16,624 nucleotides of DNA from a virus (UHGV-0349119), one strand, 5' to 3'. Shown: positions 1 through 6,747, counted from the first letter of the stretch. The notes: a model not told the origin generated them from the sequence alone. Made by a program: numbers and translations.

Positions 1-117
1 CGTTACGCACCACCCCGTCAGTAGCTGAACAGGAGGGACAGCTGATAGAAACAGAAGCCACTGGAGCACCTCAAAAACACCATCATACACTAAATCAGTA
101 AGTTGGCAGCATCACCC
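1..117. other. p15A-replicon-like plasmid/vector backbone segment (reverse orientation)
   Basis: Reverse complement of nt 1-117 reads GGGTGATGCTGCCAACTTACTGATTTAGTGTATGATGGTGTTTTTGAGGTGCTCCAGTGGCTTCTGTTTCTATCAGCTGTCCCTCCTGTTCAGCTACTGACGGGGTGGTGCGTAACG. I recognise this from memory as the sequence just upstream of the p15A origin in pACYC184-family plasmids. Similarity stops at 117/118. Confidence 0.55.
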
Positions 118-227
118 TATGCATCGAAGAGTATTATTCTGCTACCGGAATTTATAATTATGATGATGCTGATGAGCAAACTGAGTTACTTAAAAATGCA
201 TTAAGGGACTATAAAATGGCTCACTAG
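118..227 (+). pseudogene. 3' remnant of an ORF truncated at the 117/118 junction (ends ...YDDADEQTELLKNALRDYKMAH*)
   Basis: Frame is open from the junction to TAG at 225-227 with no start codon in the retained part; AT-rich like the island cargo. The same frame hits a stop inside the vector-like segment, so it is not a fusion. Confidence 0.25.
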
Positions 228-302
228 TGAAAAGAGGCTAACTTGTATTAGCTCAAACTTGATCTTACACTTTTACTGCATAGGGCTTAACCTAAGCTGA
301 CA

Positions 303-326
303 GTCCGCTCTGTGCCAGAAGCGGAC
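303..326. promoter_or_regulatory. perfect inverted repeat GTCCGCT-N10-AGCGGAC upstream of ORF 549-1601
   Basis: 7-bp arms at 303-309 and 320-326 are exact reverse complements; overlaps the repeated 20-nt motif at 310-329. Confidence 0.5.
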
Positions 327-329
327 GTT
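310..329 (+). repeat. 20-nt motif CTGTGCCAGAAGCGGACGTT (copy 1 of 2)
   Basis: 18/20 identical to 3122-3141 (CTGTGTCAGAAGCGGACATT). Its last 10 nt are the reverse complement of AACGTCCGCT at 4311-4320. Confidence 0.6.
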
Positions 330-400
330 AGCCATAGTGAATAATGCACAATGCAGTGACTGGATACAGATATGGGAAACTATTACTTTTAAAGTCCGAC

Positions 401-431
401 ATTCTTGATTCTTGATTCTTGATTCTTGATT
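401..431. repeat. tandem heptamer repeat (ATTCTTG) x 4.4
   Basis: Four exact ATTCTTG units at 401-428 followed by partial ATT; about 120 nt upstream of the ORF at 549. Confidence 0.9.
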
Positions 432-440
432 ACTTAATCT
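412..440 (+). promoter_or_regulatory. weak candidate sigma70 promoter (TTGATT, 17-nt spacer, TAATCT) embedded in the heptamer array
   Basis: -35-like TTGATT at 412-417 is one of the repeat units; -10-like TAATCT at 435-440. Both hexamers are weak matches; by-eye only. Confidence 0.2.
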
Positions 441-548
441 AAGTAACCGTGCATTTTTATCCAGCTTCAACTATCCAATGAACCAGTATGTTCTGTAACA
501 TAAAAGCAGGCTATTTAGCCCACAATCAATTGATAATTAGGCACTTAT

Positions 549-1601
549 ATGAAACTAAAAAAAATGCTTGAAATGGATTTCATCAAGGAGTTTCAAGAGC
601 ACCTAGAAACTGACTTTGAGCATGAACTCTTACATGCCAGTCTTCGCAACTATTGTTCTCATGGTAATCCTCTGCGCTTCAACAACTTTGCATTTGCAAT
701 ACGTGAGCTAATAAATCATGTGCTGAAACGACTGGCACCAAATGACAGAGTTATGGCGTCTCCATGGTTCACTAAAAACAAAAATAACGCCACTGTTACC
801 CGTAAACAGCAAGCAAAATACATCGCCCAGAAGCATATACCCGATCAACTTCTTGATGATGTAGCTATCGAAAGACTAGATGATGGTATAGCATGGTTCA
901 ATAAAAACTATTCTTCTTTAAACGATTACACCCATATTAGCGAACATTCATTTGATAGTAACCCCAAACAGTTTTTTGAGAGTGCTAAACTAATAATAGA
1001 ACTGTGTAACATAATATTCGATACCTTCGATGAACTTGAGCGTGTTATTACCGAATCAATAATCGAGGAAGTACAGAATGAAGTTACTGACATCACAATG
1101 AATAATATCCCTGACGAACTGGATATATTATCTTCACAAACAACTGTTGATTGGTGCAATGTTGAATCCATTGAGTTGCTGAACCTTGACGAAAATTATA
1201 TTTATCTTTTGGTGCGCGGAATAGTTGAAATTACTAGGCAATACGGGCGTGGTGAGGATTACTTTGCACAGCAAGATTCTTATCCCTTCAAGTTTGCAGT
1301 CTCTATTCGCACTGATAATTTCAATTTAATAGCACCATTACTTAACACTGTAGTAGTGGATACAGGCTCATGGTATGACGATGGCGAAGGATCTGCTCAT
1401 TATGACACAATTTATACAACCTCCAGATTTTTGGAGATGATCTCACATATAAAAATTAAACCAAAAACAAAGAGAAGATTGTTTCCTGAGCTTAGTACAG
1501 TAGTAACACTAGGGATTCATGAAAGTGAAGGTATATCAGAATCGGTCGTCCCAGAAATATGTCATCTAAATCAAGGAAGCTTCAATTTAACTGAATTTTA
1601 G
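549..1601 (+). CDS. hypothetical acidic protein, 350 aa (candidate system gene A); no recognised domain
   Basis: Long ORF in AT-rich DNA, followed 16 nt later by the next ORF (operon-like). No Walker A motif. No clear Shine-Dalgarno at 549; in-frame ATGs at codons 5 and 9 are alternative starts. Confidence 0.6.
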   Translation: MKLKKMLEMDFIKEFQEHLETDFEHELLHASLRNYCSHGNPLRFNNFAFAIRELINHVLKRLAPNDRVMASPWFTKNKNNATVTRKQQAKYIAQKHIPDQLLDDVAIERLDDGIAWFNKNYSSLNDYTHISEHSFDSNPKQFFESAKLIIELCNIIFDTFDELERVITESIIEEVQNEVTDITMNNIPDELDILSSQTTVDWCNVESIELLNLDENYIYLLVRGIVEITRQYGRGEDYFAQQDSYPFKFAVSIRTDNFNLIAPLLNTVVVDTGSWYDDGEGSAHYDTIYTTSRFLEMISHIKIKPKTKRRLFPELSTVVTLGIHESEGISESVVPEICHLNQGSFNLTEF

Positions 1602-1617
1602 GATTATCTATGGAGAG

Positions 1618-3018
1618 ATGAAAATGTCTAATAAGATCTATAGCCTACAAAGAATGCCTACTGAAGCATTTAAGATATTTGCAATGTCATTGCCACATGG
1701 GCCTAATTATGGTAATGCGGAATTACTTTCCGCTTGGTCAAATGAAAAAGGGCTTGGATATGGTGCAGTCCTTCAATACAGCAAAAATTCATATGGCCTT
1801 GTTGTGCTCAGGCGACGGGAAGATTATGTGCTGGTACCTCTCGAGCATGAGATGTGTTTTACCGAGCAGGAGGCATTGGTGCATCTTGATAAGCACCTTT
1901 CAGCCGGAGGAGATTTATTACCGATTCCATCTGGGCAATCACGTAGAGCCCGACTGGATCATGTTGGTGAGCGGAATGTTTGTCAGGCATTTATACAATT
2001 ATCGTCCACGATAAAGTACCGAGGAGCATTTCATTTAATTGTCGAGCTCTATCTGGCATTACCAAAACCTGATGATAACTTCAGAACCGATCTCCAGACC
2101 CAAGGATTCAACTCTAGAATCTGGGAGCTATACCTTTTCGCATGTTTTAAAGAGCAGGGAATTAAAGTTTTTCAAGATTATCCATCTCCGGATTTTATGC
2201 TCATGAACGGTAATAACAAAGCATATGTTGAGGCGGTCACCGCGAATCCAACTGGTCCGGGCAGCCTAAAGTTGCCTCAAACACAATTCCCCCCCGGAGA
2301 TCGATTAGCTCGCACAGCAGGTGATATGGCAGCACGGTTCGCTAAGACCATCAGATCTAAACTCCAGAGAAAGTATGAAGAACTACCGCATGTTAAAGGA
2401 TTTCCATTTGCAATCGCTATAGCGGATTTTAGCGGTGGGGGCACTATGGTCTGGTCTCGCGAGTCACTTCCAACCTATTTGTATGGGCAAACCGCACATA
2501 CAGTCAAAACATCCAAAGGTATGAAGGCTGCTGCATTATCAATTGAAAAGCTTTTAGGCCATGTAAATATTCCGGCAGGACTATTTAACCACCCAGAGAT
2601 TGAAAATTTATCTGCTATCTTGTTTAGTAATGCTGGAACATTGCCAAAATTCCAGCGAATGGCAATCCAAGCTGAATTTTCCTCACCTATTGTGAAAGCC
2701 CGCAGGGTTGGGATTTTATTTGATAGGACTGAAGGGGCCTTGGAACCAATTGACTTCGATCTAGATATTCAATCGCCTGAATATATTAATCTTTGCGATG
2801 GCAAAGAATTTTGGTGTTTTGAACTTGAAGTATTTCATAACCCTAATGCTGCTTATCCAATGTCCCATGATTTCCTGCCGGGGGCAACACATTGGTTTGA
2901 ACACAATGGAGAGATCATCTGTGAGACCCAATGGAAAAACCAGGTACTTGCATCAGTAACCGAGTTTAGTATTGTTCCAGATGTCGCCGATAAACTCAAA
3001 GCCAAGGAAAAGCCGTGA
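1618..3018 (+). CDS. hypothetical protein, 466 aa (candidate system gene B); possible degenerate PD-(D/E)xK-like core
   Basis: GGAGAG at 1612-1617 is well spaced for the ATG at 1624 (the 1618 ATG is in frame). Residues E170, PD191-192 and E205 (WELYLFA...SPDFMLMNGNNKAYVEAVT) loosely resemble a nuclease core but lack the canonical Lys. No NTPase motif. Confidence 0.65.
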   Translation: MKMSNKIYSLQRMPTEAFKIFAMSLPHGPNYGNAELLSAWSNEKGLGYGAVLQYSKNSYGLVVLRRREDYVLVPLEHEMCFTEQEALVHLDKHLSAGGDLLPIPSGQSRRARLDHVGERNVCQAFIQLSSTIKYRGAFHLIVELYLALPKPDDNFRTDLQTQGFNSRIWELYLFACFKEQGIKVFQDYPSPDFMLMNGNNKAYVEAVTANPTGPGSLKLPQTQFPPGDRLARTAGDMAARFAKTIRSKLQRKYEELPHVKGFPFAIAIADFSGGGTMVWSRESLPTYLYGQTAHTVKTSKGMKAAALSIEKLLGHVNIPAGLFNHPEIENLSAILFSNAGTLPKFQRMAIQAEFSSPIVKARRVGILFDRTEGALEPIDFDLDIQSPEYINLCDGKEFWCFELEVFHNPNAAYPMSHDFLPGATHWFEHNGEIICETQWKNQVLASVTEFSIVPDVADKLKAKEKP

Positions 3019-3102
3019 TTGCTTGATGCAAGCATATTCTTGAAAGAAGAAAATTGACAAGATTTAAAACTAATAATGAAGGGGGGAATGTTACGAGGTT
3101 GT

Positions 3103-3124
3103 CAGGGCTGCAACAGCAGCCCTG
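3103..3124 (+). promoter_or_regulatory. stable hairpin (9-bp stem CAGGGCTGC/GCAGCCCTG, loop AACA) 85 nt after the ORF-B stop
   Basis: Exact reverse-complement arms seen directly. No immediate T-tract, so not a classic intrinsic terminator; could be an attenuator, RNA-stability element or protein-binding site. Confidence 0.35.
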
Positions 3125-3141
3125 TGTCAGAAGCGGACATT
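3122..3141 (+). repeat. 20-nt motif CTGTGTCAGAAGCGGACATT (copy 2 of 2), about 55 nt upstream of ORF 3195
   Basis: 18/20 identity to 310-329. Confidence 0.6.
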
Positions 3142-3194
3142 TTAAGCATTCGAGTGTAAGGTCTGTTTTTTAATTTGTAATTTTAGGAGGTAAC

Positions 3195-4148
3195 ATGCCA
3201 AAGAAAAGACGGTCTATTAGCCAGGTAAAAGAAGACATTTCAATCAGGGTTCTGCGGGAAAAACTACCTCGCGAATGGGTCGTACATAGCTATGGCGCTG
3301 ACTATGGTATTGATTGCGTTGTTGAATTATTTGATTTTATTGATGACAGTGAAAGTATTGCAGAAACCCTTGGTGAAAACTTCTTTGTACAACTAAAATC
3401 TTCAGATTGTATTGAATATTGTACACGTAAAGCCTATGCTCGTGGAAATGTAACCAAAGGAAAGTTAACAGAAGATAAAAGCGATTTTGTCGAAATCCCT
3501 GTCGCAAAATTCAAGTTAGATATATCAGACATTTTGACTGTTCAGTCTATAGGTATTGCAATTCCAGTATTATTGATACTAGTTGACACTAATACAGAAA
3601 AGGCATTTTTTATTTGCCTTAATGATTACATAGATAAAGTTCTCATACCAGAAGACCCGAATTATTCTAAAAAAGACTCAAAGACTATATATATACCTCT
3701 TGAAAATGAAATTCTGGATGATGAAGATGCGCTTGTTCCATTACGTGCATATGGTAAAAGATCAAAAATGTATGGCGCATTCTCACTTTTTAACTATCAA
3801 TTAAAAGAAATAAACCGATTACAAGGTAAAGCGGCCGTACAATTTCCTGTCTCTTTCGATGAAGCTATAGAGATGGTAAATAACTTTATTGTAATTGCTC
3901 TTAGACAAGATATATGGTCTGGTCATGAATTTTGGAAGCCGATGGTATCGAGCCAAAAGGAGTTGATCCAACTTCAAATAGATATTGATAAAGAGGTAAA
4001 ACCTGAACATTATGAACATTTTTTGAGTTACTGTTCCGAAGTGGTTTGGCATAAGTTAACAAATCTTTCAAATATGTATGAGGAGCTTGTTAGAGAATGG
4101 TTCATGCCAACCTTGCTAGCGACATTAACATCAGCCCGCCCTAAATAA
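3195..4148 (+). CDS. hypothetical protein, 317 aa, with N-terminal Mrr/DUF4365-like PD-(D/E)xK nuclease-fold motif (candidate system gene C)
   Basis: Strong RBS AGGAGG 4 nt before the ATG. N-terminal GADYGIDCVVEL...FFVQLK (D36/D40, E44, Q66-x-K68) matches the D...E...QxK pattern I recall for DUF4365 and Mrr-like restriction folds. Domain call is from memory. Confidence 0.7.
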   Translation: MPKKRRSISQVKEDISIRVLREKLPREWVVHSYGADYGIDCVVELFDFIDDSESIAETLGENFFVQLKSSDCIEYCTRKAYARGNVTKGKLTEDKSDFVEIPVAKFKLDISDILTVQSIGIAIPVLLILVDTNTEKAFFICLNDYIDKVLIPEDPNYSKKDSKTIYIPLENEILDDEDALVPLRAYGKRSKMYGAFSLFNYQLKEINRLQGKAAVQFPVSFDEAIEMVNNFIVIALRQDIWSGHEFWKPMVSSQKELIQLQIDIDKEVKPEHYEHFLSYCSEVVWHKLTNLSNMYEELVREWFMPTLLATLTSARPK

Positions 4149-4196
4149 TAATAGCAATGCTACGCAAAAGCATCCTAGCCCTAAATTCTTAAATAA

Positions 4197-4223
4197 GGGC
4201 TTCATATCAAATTGAAGCCTTTG
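4197..4223. terminator. candidate stem-loop between convergent genes (GGCTTCA, 8-nt loop, TGAAGCC, then TTTG)
   Basis: 7-bp exact inverted repeat at 4198-4204 and 4213-4219 with a short T-run; lies about 50 nt past the ORF-C stop. May serve both convergent transcripts. Confidence 0.3.
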
Positions 4224-4408
4224 TGAACAATAGAAACAACACTAAAAGACACCCCTATCACATTTAGTTGAATAGAAAAATAATAATGCGCCCACGACGA
4301 TACAATTACTAACGTCCGCTCCTCGCTCAAAGCAGACTGTCAGATTTGATTGCATTTTGCCTACGCAAACTGTCAGTTCGAGCCTGAGCTAATACAGCTA
4401 ACTGGATG

Positions 4409-4636
4409 TTAGCCTTTTTTAATTTTATTTTTAGATTGTTCAATGTGATGATTTAACACTTCTCTCTTTGCCTCTTCATAGGTTAGCTCTCCATTGATTA
4501 CCTTATTTTTTATTTCATTAAAAAATGAGGAGCCTTTGGGATCTTTACTTGATAAAAAAAGACTGGCTTCAGCTCTCCGAAAAGCTTCTTTCCTTGCTTC
4601 TATAGAAAATGAATTAGCAGGGTTATTTTTGTTCAT
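4409..4636 (-). CDS. small helical protein, 75 aa; loosely VbhA/YhfG-antitoxin-like but lacking the inhibitory Glu motif
   Basis: Overlaps the stop of the upstream membrane-protein gene by 14 nt (coupled). Segment RRAEASLFLSSKDP...VINGELTYEE resembles the pattern I recall for VbhA/YhfG small proteins; weak. Confidence 0.4.
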   Translation of the reverse strand: MNKNNPANSFSIEARKEAFRRAEASLFLSSKDPKGSSFFNEIKNKVINGELTYEEAKREVLNHHIEQSKNKIKKG

Positions 4637-5513
4637 AAGTTGAAGTGCCCTTATTATTTATATTCGGGATGTTTTTATCTACAAGAGTTAGTCTTAACTC
4701 CGAGAATTTATTTCCTGATATTTTATAACACTGATTTTCATTTTTTTCAATATAAAGAGATTTGCTTTCTGCGCTACCACATGTCGTAGATGTTCTTGCA
4801 TCAAGAAAAATAAACTTTTCTTGAAATCTTTCAATATATTTCATTGCTGTCATGCTAATAATAAAAAGAGCAACTGACACAGCAAAAAGGGATAAGCCTG
4901 ATACTAAACGATTAAAATTAAATTTCCTTTTAATAACTAATGAACTGGCTAGATTGACCATGTTATAGGGGACCATAATTATGAGTCCTATTAATATTAT
5001 TTTTTCAGGAAGATTGTTCACTTGTATATGATGTTGAGCCAAGTTTCCAATATATACTGAAATCATAGAGGATATTACTATTTTTGCTGGGGATACATCT
5101 CGCAAAAATATGTATATATAGACTGTAGTTGCACAAATCATTGCTCCTATTGGAAATGAGAGCATGAAAGCATAAGCTAATGTTGAGTAATTAAGATTTT
5201 CTGGGGCTATACCATAAGCTATGTCAAGCTTAAACTTTGCGATCCATAAGCATACTGAATATGTAAAGCCAGTTACGCCCCACTTAACCACTGTATTATT
5301 AAATACTTTATTTAATAAATCACGATATCCTATGTATACACTGGTTAATAAAGCTATAGATGATAGAAAAATTGGAGCGGCAATGTATATATTTTCTAGC
5401 CATAATGGGTTTTCTACAATCAAGTATCCAAAAGGTATTAAGTATATTATAGCCAATAGTTGAGGGTTGTTTAATTTGGATGATGCGTCAACCAAATTAT
5501 TTTTATATTCCAT
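4623..5513 (-). CDS. polytopic inner-membrane protein, 296 aa, unknown function
   Basis: Several long hydrophobic segments consistent with 7-8 TM helices and a polar C-terminal tail. AAGGA RBS overlaps the integrase stop; ATG at 5511-5513 is 9 nt after it (operon-like). Very AT-rich. Confidence 0.65.
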   Translation of the reverse strand: MEYKNNLVDASSKLNNPQLLAIIYLIPFGYLIVENPLWLENIYIAAPIFLSSIALLTSVYIGYRDLLNKVFNNTVVKWGVTGFTYSVCLWIAKFKLDIAYGIAPENLNYSTLAYAFMLSFPIGAMICATTVYIYIFLRDVSPAKIVISSMISVYIGNLAQHHIQVNNLPEKIILIGLIIMVPYNMVNLASSLVIKRKFNFNRLVSGLSLFAVSVALFIISMTAMKYIERFQEKFIFLDARTSTTCGSAESKSLYIEKNENQCYKISGNKFSELRLTLVDKNIPNINNKGTSTYEQK

Positions 5514-5522
5514 ATAACGTCC

Positions 5523-6596
5523 TTATTTCAACTTTAACGCCAAATCTTCAGCTTTTGGATGATAATACCGCATTAGCATTCTTGGATCTTTATGTCCTGT
5601 AATTTTGGTCAGTTCATGCATAGGGAAAATTTCAGCAAGTCGAGAAGTTGCTTCATGTCGAAGGTCATGAAATCTTAAATCTTTAAGGAATGATTCATCA
5701 CATAATGAGTTTGTTTTCTCGTATCGTTCTCTGGCTCGTTTTACAGCTCGGTCAAAAGCTCGGGTAATCGCGTCTGCACGCATATCAAAAACCTTATCAG
5801 CAGCTGGCTTAGAATGTTCCTTGAGACTGGACAGTATCGTGATGGCTTTCGTTGATAAAGGGACATCGCGGGCATTACCATTCTTAGTATCCGGCAGATG
5901 TGCAACTCGCCGATCAAGATCGATAAAGCGCCATCGAAGATCTGCGATTTCGCTACGGCGCATGGCTGTCTCTAACGCCAGAAGAATGATTGCTGGCAAT
6001 ACTAATGAATGTGTTGCGGCGATGATATGTTCGATCTCGTTGGCTATTTCCTTTCCTGACGTAACACCGGTTTTCTCAGAAACTACAGGCAGCGCTTCCA
6101 GGCGTCTGGTCCTGGAGTTCTTGGGTTGAGGTTTGCGAATGGCCTCTACGGGGTTCAGCAGGCTCTCCATGCCCCATTCTTTCCGCGAAACGTTGAATAC
6201 ATGAGAAAGTAAGGCCAAACGCCTTAAAACGGTTGCAGGGGCATAGATTTTCAACCATTCATCTCTCAGCTTGGCGACATCGGCACTCCTGATGCTGGCC
6301 ATATAGTTTTTCGCCAGCTGAGTGCCTTTTAGTATCCGCACCAATGATTGGTCTTGCACTGCCCCTTTTTTGTCGGGAACAATCTCTTTTTCATATCGCG
6401 TTAGGGCTTCATACAATGTCGTAGATTCCGCTTCGCTGCGGCTAAGCCAAACTCCTCTCGCCATTTCTGACTCGATCATTTTGGCCCAAGCTTCTGCTTC
6501 TACTTTGGTGTTAAAGGTTTTGGTTTGAGAGGGAAAACCTCGTTTACGGATTTGAGCTTCCCATTGGTAGTTACCACGTTTGCGTATAGTCGCCAT
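5523..6596 (-). CDS. tyrosine recombinase / phage-type integrase of the AT-rich island
   Basis: C-terminal HDLRHEATSRLAE...LMRYYH matches the catalytic R-H-R-Y box region. Preferred start is the ATG at 6594-6596 (MATIRKRGNYQWEAQ...) with an AGGAA RBS; the ORF track's start at 6626 is a TTG. Confidence 0.85.
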   Translation of the reverse strand: MATIRKRGNYQWEAQIRKRGFPSQTKTFNTKVEAEAWAKMIESEMARGVWLSRSEAESTTLYEALTRYEKEIVPDKKGAVQDQSLVRILKGTQLAKNYMASIRSADVAKLRDEWLKIYAPATVLRRLALLSHVFNVSRKEWGMESLLNPVEAIRKPQPKNSRTRRLEALPVVSEKTGVTSGKEIANEIEHIIAATHSLVLPAIILLALETAMRRSEIADLRWRFIDLDRRVAHLPDTKNGNARDVPLSTKAITILSSLKEHSKPAADKVFDMRADAITRAFDRAVKRARERYEKTNSLCDESFLKDLRFHDLRHEATSRLAEIFPMHELTKITGHKDPRMLMRYYHPKAEDLALKLK

Positions 6597-6684
6597 TTCT
6601 GTCTGATTCCTAACGAACTGTGGCAATATTGTGGCAAAAAATCCATTTAAATTCGATAGGTATTGATTTTACAAGATCAATTTA

Positions 6685-6733
6685 CGCATTCGTAATGCGA
6701 AGGTCGTAGGTTCGACTCCTATTATCGGCACCA
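6685..6733 (+). tRNA. thrW: 3' fragment (anticodon stem to CCA, about 49 nt) of tRNA-Thr(CGU); att core repeat, not an intact gene
   Basis: CGCATTCGTAATGCGAAGGTCGTAGGTTCGACTCCTATTATCGGCACCA carries the anticodon loop with CGT, the T-arm GGTTCGACTCC and the acceptor 3' end plus CCA. The preceding sequence (aagatcaattta) is not a tRNA 5' half. thrW is the att site of P22/SfV-type phages. Confidence 0.75.
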
Positions 6734-6747
6734 TTTAAATCAATAAG

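Follow-up and report, generated by a model that had tools for sequence, protein, structure and literature searches.

The window analyzed here, a 16,624-nt stretch of viral DNA (UHGV-0349119), carries three adjacent, co-directional open reading frames (ORFs) on the plus strand, ORF-A (549–1601), ORF-B (1618–3018 as the longest frame), and ORF-C (3195–4148), which represent two separately mobile cassettes lying side by side rather than one system. A preliminary description of this DNA had placed the frames correctly but had treated them as an undescribed three-gene module resembling no named system; the grouping breaks down at a junction between ORF-B and ORF-C, and the claim of novelty did not hold either, as ORF-B is by sequence a clear member of the PD-T7-1 family and both ORF-A and ORF-C carry domains curated in Pfam or PADLOC. 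We consider it likely that the cargo slot containing the three ORFs (~330–4314), located at an attachment (att) site derived from a tRNA gene that we take to be thrW, holds two stacked, independently mobile cassettes of nuclease-type autonomous defences. Cassette 1 would be a co-inherited pair formed by a stand-alone pP_pnuc protein (ORF-A) and a PD-T7-1-family protein (ORF-B), while cassette 2 would encode a single DUF4365/DREN nuclease with a conserved helical domain (ORF-C). All three genes presented ratios of nonsynonymous to synonymous substitution rates (dN/dS) of 0.11–0.40 against their orthologues (0.12–0.17 for ORF-A), indicating purifying selection and, therefore, real genes rather than chance ORFs.

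The boundary between the two cassettes, as determined by blastn comparison of the window with individual retrieved loci, is sharp and falls at 3096–3101. Cassette 1 (~297–3101, plus strand) comprises the region upstream of ORF-A, ORF-A, ORF-B, and a further 83 nt, and was found with the same edges in other hosts, each time with ORF-A and ORF-B only, including Enterobacter asburiae (303–3101, 96.5% identity), an IMG/VR contig (298–3101, 98.3%), the Proteus IncT plasmid Rts1 (297–417 and 439–3101, 96.7%), and a Rahnella victoriana megaplasmid (305–3089, 90.6%). In total, cassette 1 was found without ORF-C in five other hosts or replicons, Moellerella among them. Conversely, cassette 2, the ORF-C unit (3096–4335, plus strand), was present without ORF-A and ORF-B in Enterobacter adelaidei (3096–4333, 98.4%) and in Escherichia coli A134_1EC (3096–4338, 97.4%). 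Among 5426 complete E. coli genomes, seven carried all three genes, one carried ORF-A together with an ORF-B truncated by the insertion sequence (IS) IS1, and one carried ORF-C alone; ORF-C thus lies beside ORF-A and ORF-B only within one E. coli lineage, represented by these seven genomes. Relatives of ORF-C from 13 GTDB species (41–98% identity) had ORF-A or ORF-B relatives nearby in none of the 13, and no conserved neighbour. Co-occurrence of the trio in other genomes, on which the preliminary description had in advance made the grouping depend, therefore fails outside that single lineage.

ORF-B most likely starts at the ATG at 1624 (1624–3018), which is preceded with an 8-nt spacing by GGAG at 1612–1615 and which agrees with the 464-aa length of this protein in RefSeq and among its orthologues; the protein would therefore be 464 rather than 466 aa long, and the gap between ORF-A and ORF-B 22 rather than the 16 nt initially given. 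The PADLOC model for PD-T7-1 (PDLC04073) matches ORF-B with an E-value of 3.8e-83 (residues 115–451 against profile positions 114–447 of 452), followed by the model for PD-T7-5 (E-value 3.7e-38); ORF-B also matches phrog_8571, while no Pfam domain was found in it. A named defence system thus does match one of the three ORFs. In an alignment of 36 homologues, E170, P191–D192, E205, K248, and Y253 are invariant, and Q250 is conserved in at least 90% of the sequences. PD-T7-1 itself is a single gene from strain ECOR46 (1351 nt; RCQ85672.1; Vassallo 2022) that is annotated as “Nuclease”, was obtained by selection on phage T7, and gives stronger protection against T-even phages (PMC9519451); one review places it among the PD-(D/E)xK systems (PMC10952713). 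The designation of ORF-B as nuclease-type is taken over from this literature and would apply to it by analogy. Like PD-T7-1, ORF-B is a single protein of ~450–460 aa carried by mobile elements and defence islands; it differs in that a pP_pnuc gene inherited together with it lies directly upstream, whereas PD-T7-1 as described includes no such gene. A terminator-like hairpin directly follows ORF-B (3020–3034, plus strand; promoter/terminator scan).

ORF-A (350 aa) consists of two domains, pP_pnuc_1 (Pfam, E-value 1.2e-34) and pP_pnuc_2 (5.3e-17), both designated “pPIWI-associating nuclease”, and a clade-specific tail of ~70 aa; it also matches the PADLOC model Aga_Nuclease over its full length (E-value 1.4e-58) as well as phrog_29508. 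While these matches link ORF-A to the nucleases associated with prokaryotic Argonautes (pAgo), neither ORF-A nor the relatives examined have a neighbouring Argonaute or PIWI gene. Specifically, no PIWI/Argonaute domain was found in the genes scanned across window positions 549–7911 or in the annotation of the corresponding locus of E. coli TUM10008, no Argonaute was found beside ORF-A relatives in the Pfam-annotated genomic contexts examined, and the 80 metagenomic loci carrying ORF-A relatives showed no recurrent neighbour of Argonaute size. When the neighbours at these 80 loci were clustered, the two largest clusters represented a type IV secretion system (T4SS) coupling protein and a ~450-aa ORFan; the latter is little informative because it comes from a single near-identical lineage. 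The AlphaFold (AF2) model of ORF-A (predicted local distance difference test [pLDDT] score of 85) presents a helical bundle and a small beta-sheet domain. The family comprises ~1112 clusters at 50% identity, and its top-scoring representatives are nearly all stand-alone proteins of 270–320 aa. An orthologue with 76% identity occupies the gpA–gpQ hotspot (defined in PMC9122126) of a Serratia P2-like prophage alone, adjoining a CBASS-type SMODS gene; a 67% homologue is found solo in Klebsiella, and more distant relatives are likewise solo on phage-plasmid-like replicons, a P4-like satellite, and defence islands of Shewanella. No match to ORF-A was obtained by tblastn in cultured phage genomes.

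In a distant pP_pnuc clade (~30% identity to ORF-A; loci L104–L113, L129, and L134, e.g., L134:4655–6861), the pP_pnuc gene overlaps by 4 nt with an upstream gene encoding an ORFan of 449–457 aa, which has no Pfam or PADLOC match; by eye, it presents an E...PD...D motif resembling the core of ORF-B. This ~450-aa ORFan was considered as a relative of PD-T7-1 and rejected, as the hhalign probability was 0.1% and PADLOC gave no match. Upstream of ORF-A, within cassette 1, the heptamer ATTCTTG is repeated four times in tandem (401–433, plus strand); in Rts1, an IS5 copy is inserted beside this array, where the homology to the window breaks (417/439).

ORF-A and ORF-B are a conserved, co-inherited pair, yet not an obligate one. 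It is possible, although doubtful, that the two genes form an obligate two-gene defence, in which the pP_pnuc protein would be a sensor, a regulator, or a second effector and ORF-C would be a separate entity. The pair, with a gap of 22–35 nt, recurs in five genera and on several types of replicons; its internal junction (22–24 nt) and the cassette edges are conserved among E. coli, Enterobacter, Proteus Rts1, Moellerella, and Rahnella, no terminator separates the two genes, and their synonymous divergence (dS) is matched (ORF-A/ORF-B: 0.098/0.064 against Rts1, 0.075/0.064 against E. asburiae, and 0.241/0.232 against R. victoriana). The overlap of the distant pP_pnuc genes with the upstream ORFan gene described above is also in line with a two-gene arrangement. 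On the other hand, ORF-A has remained intact where its partner has decayed; in Rahnella sp. (L010:9075–10464, L011, and L012), three independent assemblies show the ORF-B orthologue broken up among three frames, and in E. coli ES3 ORF-B is cut by IS1. In addition, ORF-A occurs solo at 76–77% identity and an ORF-B homologue (82%) occurs solo in an integrative and conjugative element (ICE); among the 80 metagenomic ORF-A loci, an ORF-B or ORF-C relative was found in only three, all identical to the window, which leaves 77 without ORF-B; and in PLSDB, ORF-A was found on 56 plasmids and ORF-B on 89, with both on only four. PD-T7-1 is moreover effective as a single gene. ORF-A may either defend on its own or act in support of ORF-B. 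The Rahnella sp. locus continues with an AAA_15/AAA_21 ATPase and UvrD-helicase gene pair that looks Gabija-like.

ORF-C (317 aa), the only gene of cassette 2, has its own strong ribosome binding site (RBS), as initially proposed, with AGGAGG located 5 nt ahead of the ATG at 3195. The restriction-endonuclease-like character first noticed for its N-terminus was confirmed by two approaches; Pfam detected DUF4365 (E-value 2.8e-15), and in the AF2 model (pLDDT 86) the N-terminal ~180 residues matched the DREN-APAZ chains of SPARDA (9qcc, 9vx6, and 9jt2) in Foldseek with a probability of 1.00 (E-value of 4.4e-5 for 9qcc_A). This DUF4365/DREN domain of the PD-(D/E)xK type (residues ~1–180) is followed by a conserved helical C-terminal domain (~185–317); for these C-terminal ~130 aa, which form a helical bundle, no match was found in Pfam or among solved structures (Foldseek). 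The catalytic motif is intact, with D36, G38, D40, E44, and K68 invariant in a 56-sequence alignment, in which Q66 is conserved in at least 90% of the sequences; Q66 is invariant in a 52-sequence set. The DUF4365 motif is needed for toxicity of EAT16, an effector of an extracellular contractile injection system (eCIS), and the QxK part of the motif is needed for the DNase activity of TmuRE. ORF-C thus shares with SPARDA the DREN/DUF4365 PD-(D/E)xK fold over ~180–190 aligned columns and the DxGxD...QxK motif; however, the alignment is limited to these columns, and ORF-C has the helical domain where SPARDA has APAZ. Because it has neither an APAZ domain nor an Argonaute, ORF-C is not a SPARDA member. 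Searches with ORF-C yielded no match in IMG/VR and no tblastn match in cultured phage genomes. One relative adjoins a Hachiman-type pair (HamA and a DEAD/ResIII helicase) in Pseudomonas syringae, and another lies at one end of a Yersinia prophage.

A validated single-gene DUF4365 system, Divona, has been described from the chromosomal integron of Vibrio cholerae, with homologues near E. coli integrases (Darracq et al., bioRxiv 10.1101/2024.07.02.601686). Compared by description only, ORF-C resembles Divona in being one gene with an N-terminal DUF4365 and a non-APAZ C-terminal domain; it differs in that the Crr6-like domain (PF08847) reported for Divona gave no Pfam match at E-value ≤10 in ORF-C or in 51 aligned relatives, although a method of higher sensitivity may underlie the Divona assignment, HHpred and Foldseek being among the tools listed by its authors. 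Unrelated DUF4365 proteins also occur in E. coli islands. One of these, a 284-aa DUF4365 protein of E. coli NIID080884 (L051:4199–6188), was considered as a member of the ORF-C family and rejected, as it is unrelated outside the domain; its gene follows another whose 332-aa product gave a weak HEPN-like match. The NIID080884 island, which we presume to be similar to CP4-44, also carries genes for an Ag43 adhesin and a GTPase-family protein and is located downstream of a copy of the slot-flanking element described below.

As proposed here, each unit would act as an autonomous innate defence, with ORF-B and ORF-C remaining inactive until their non-catalytic domains sense infection and then cutting DNA. 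In SPARDA, this nuclease domain is inert until assembly or oligomerisation and then degrades DNA indiscriminately; by analogy, cutting by ORF-C would probably also be indiscriminate, with the helical domain in place of APAZ and Argonaute. ORF-A would be a further single-gene defence or would assist ORF-B. Several observations weigh against this proposal. Comparison of the predicted ORF-A model revealed no recognisable nuclease fold, no match to known nucleases, and no related solved structure, and no description of ORF-A function was found in the literature. Residues 1–114 of ORF-B fall outside the alignment with the PD-T7-1 hidden Markov model, indicating divergence from the validated ECOR46 protein, and blastn found no match to ORF-B in E. 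coli outside its own lineage; ORF-C has no PADLOC match. Lastly, the tight, conserved junction between ORF-A and ORF-B and their in-step divergence suggest that the two may be one two-gene system. For all three proteins, phmmer against the PDB yielded nothing meaningful, NCBIfam gave no match, and the Pfam scan found no NTPase or helicase domain, the last in agreement with the initial reading of the sequence.

It is improbable that these genes are not anti-phage at all and instead encode toxins, function in selfish addiction, or provide nucleases for competition between mobile elements (e.g., plasmids or satellites). Their carriage on plasmids, ICEs, prophages, and phage-plasmid-like replicons would fit such a role, as would the use of DUF4365 as a toxin domain in EAT16 and the reported activity of SPARDA against plasmids; however, anti-phage activity has been validated for the PD-T7-1 family, the genes are located in recognised phage-defence hotspots, and none of them has a conserved adjacent antitoxin-like partner. 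A single three-gene system, to which the adjacency and shared direction of the genes and a near-identical ORF-A/ORF-B/ORF-C block in the seven E. coli genomes and three metagenome contigs might point, is highly improbable given that each part is found without the others at identities of at least 97%, that the junction, the terminator-like hairpin, and the separate RBS set ORF-C apart, and that no partner of ORF-C is conserved across the 13 species.

The chromosome of E. coli TUM10008 is 100% identical to window positions 120–5600, and the host region is a decayed ICE-like island with traJ, trbJ, and an IS1-disrupted trbL. The left window edge is the end of an IS1A copy (1–117, minus strand) that interrupts trbL of the island backbone, as shown by RefSeq annotation of the identical TUM10008 locus; it matches the IS1 copy of strain ES3 at 100% identity. 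Backbone homology (blastn) to the Shedu-carrying strain CT282 covers positions 117–329 and 4315–6735, which delimits the cargo slot to ~330–4314, between trbL and a gene encoding a VbhA-like protein. The content of this slot varies between strains, with Shedu in CT282 and the ORF-A/ORF-B and ORF-C cassettes here. GC content is 0.33–0.45 across positions 500–4500, as compared to 0.55–0.60 in the prophage part of the window, in agreement with the AT-rich stretch first noted. The setting given in the preliminary description also proved largely accurate, with the IS1 end, an integrase, and a downstream prophage all present, except that the tRNA gene is represented by its 3′ half only. Its view that such a setting is typical of defence cargo was borne out by the integrase-associated slot, by Shedu in the same position in CT282, and by the other genes of the TUM10008 island, which include a DUF4297 gene, an AAA ATPase and HNH endonuclease gene pair, and HigA; the pair looks Septu-like by annotation, although the record gives no system name. 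Upstream of the window in TUM10008 (L001:1–5243), a DUF4297 and coiled-coil gene pair is present in addition to the AAA ATPase and HNH pair of the island. In CT282, the S8 peptidase IteS occupies the place of these upstream pairs; because of this exchange, a second variable defence slot appears to be present in the same island.

The island backbone to the right of the slot contains, all on the minus strand, the VbhA-like gene (75 aa; 4409–4636), a gene encoding a multi-transmembrane protein (296 aa; 4623–5513), and a tyrosine integrase gene (5523–6626). These genes (4409–6626) are present at 97–99% identity in ~630 E. coli genomes, independent of the cargo; the VbhA-like gene and the membrane protein gene were considered as members of a system with the cargo and rejected, as they are backbone genes retained under any cargo. 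The 75-aa gene is annotated as a VbhA-family antitoxin, with weak Pfam hits only, and overlaps by 14 nt with the gene for the 296-aa multi-pass membrane protein; no Fic toxin partner accompanies this pair (4409–5513). A tRNA-Thr 3′ half (6659–6735, plus strand), representing the att-site remnant, was detected by Rfam with 22.3 bits, which is under the gathering score, and was not called by ARAGORN; based on the K-12 sequence, it presumably derives from thrW. RefSeq labels this position as a 112-nt “tRNA-Ser”. Rfam and ARAGORN identified no RNA gene at gathering score in the window. The remnant sits between two integrases, the second of which is followed downstream by prophage genes, and a 55-nt stretch overlapping it (6685–6739) adjoins the integrase of the E. 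asburiae island that carries ORF-A and ORF-B.

A repeat search identified imperfect inverted repeats of ~95 nt on either side of the slot, with a left arm at 244–338, within which backbone homology ends (329), and a right arm at 4302–4396, within which it resumes (4315). The two arms align in two segments (289–338 against 4302–4351, 78% identity; 244–273 against 4367–4396, 80%); the left-arm sequence is found in ~2000 genomes, with up to five copies per genome. The 5′ edge of each cassette additionally carries a copy of a 23-nt direct repeat (GCYCTGTGYCAGAAGCGGACRTT), with copy 1, GCTCTGTGCCAGAAGCGGACGTT, at 307–329 (plus strand) and copy 2 at 3119–3141; two occurrences of the motif CAGAAGCGGAC were counted in the window, as compared to 0.2 expected. 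Copy 2 is part of a 45-nt element (3096–3141, plus strand) that also contains a hairpin, CAGGGCTGC-AACA-GCAGCCCTG. Approximately 800 E. coli genomes carry this element, which usually coincides with the 3′ end of a gene for a small site-specific integrase and precedes variable cargo (e.g., a dynamin-like pair). The 23–45-nt motif and the inverted repeats of the slot may be signs of a recombination process by which defence cassettes are shuffled beside small integrases. With its conserved backbone and a strain-variable slot in which unrelated small systems are stacked, this locus resembles the hotspots described for other mobile elements (P2 gpA–gpQ and P4 psu–int, Rousset 2022; an ICE hotspot, Vassallo 2022); it differs from these in the ~95-nt inverted repeats that bracket the slot and in the shared 23-nt motif with which each cassette opens.

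The region is, overall, defence-type cargo of known kinds that had been wrongly grouped as a trio, and what stands out is the pairing of ORF-A with ORF-B and the pP_pnuc family without Argonaute. These findings correct a tempting reading, in that adjacency in a defence island does not amount to a system, and the edges of cassettes can be read from DNA comparison; they also identify a previously unannotated relative of PD-T7-1. In addition, pP_pnuc and DREN/DUF4365 proteins, mainly known as Argonaute-linked effectors, are widespread as stand-alone genes in phage-defence hotspots, and the recurrent junction motif hints at a route by which cargo is exchanged in such slots. Of these, the pP_pnuc family is understood least and may reasonably be put forward as a new defence of one or two genes; we suggest, tentatively, that it may be an Argonaute-independent immune protein without a relative of solved fold, recruited in this enterobacterial clade as the co-inherited partner of a PD-T7-1-type nuclease in an undescribed two-gene system.

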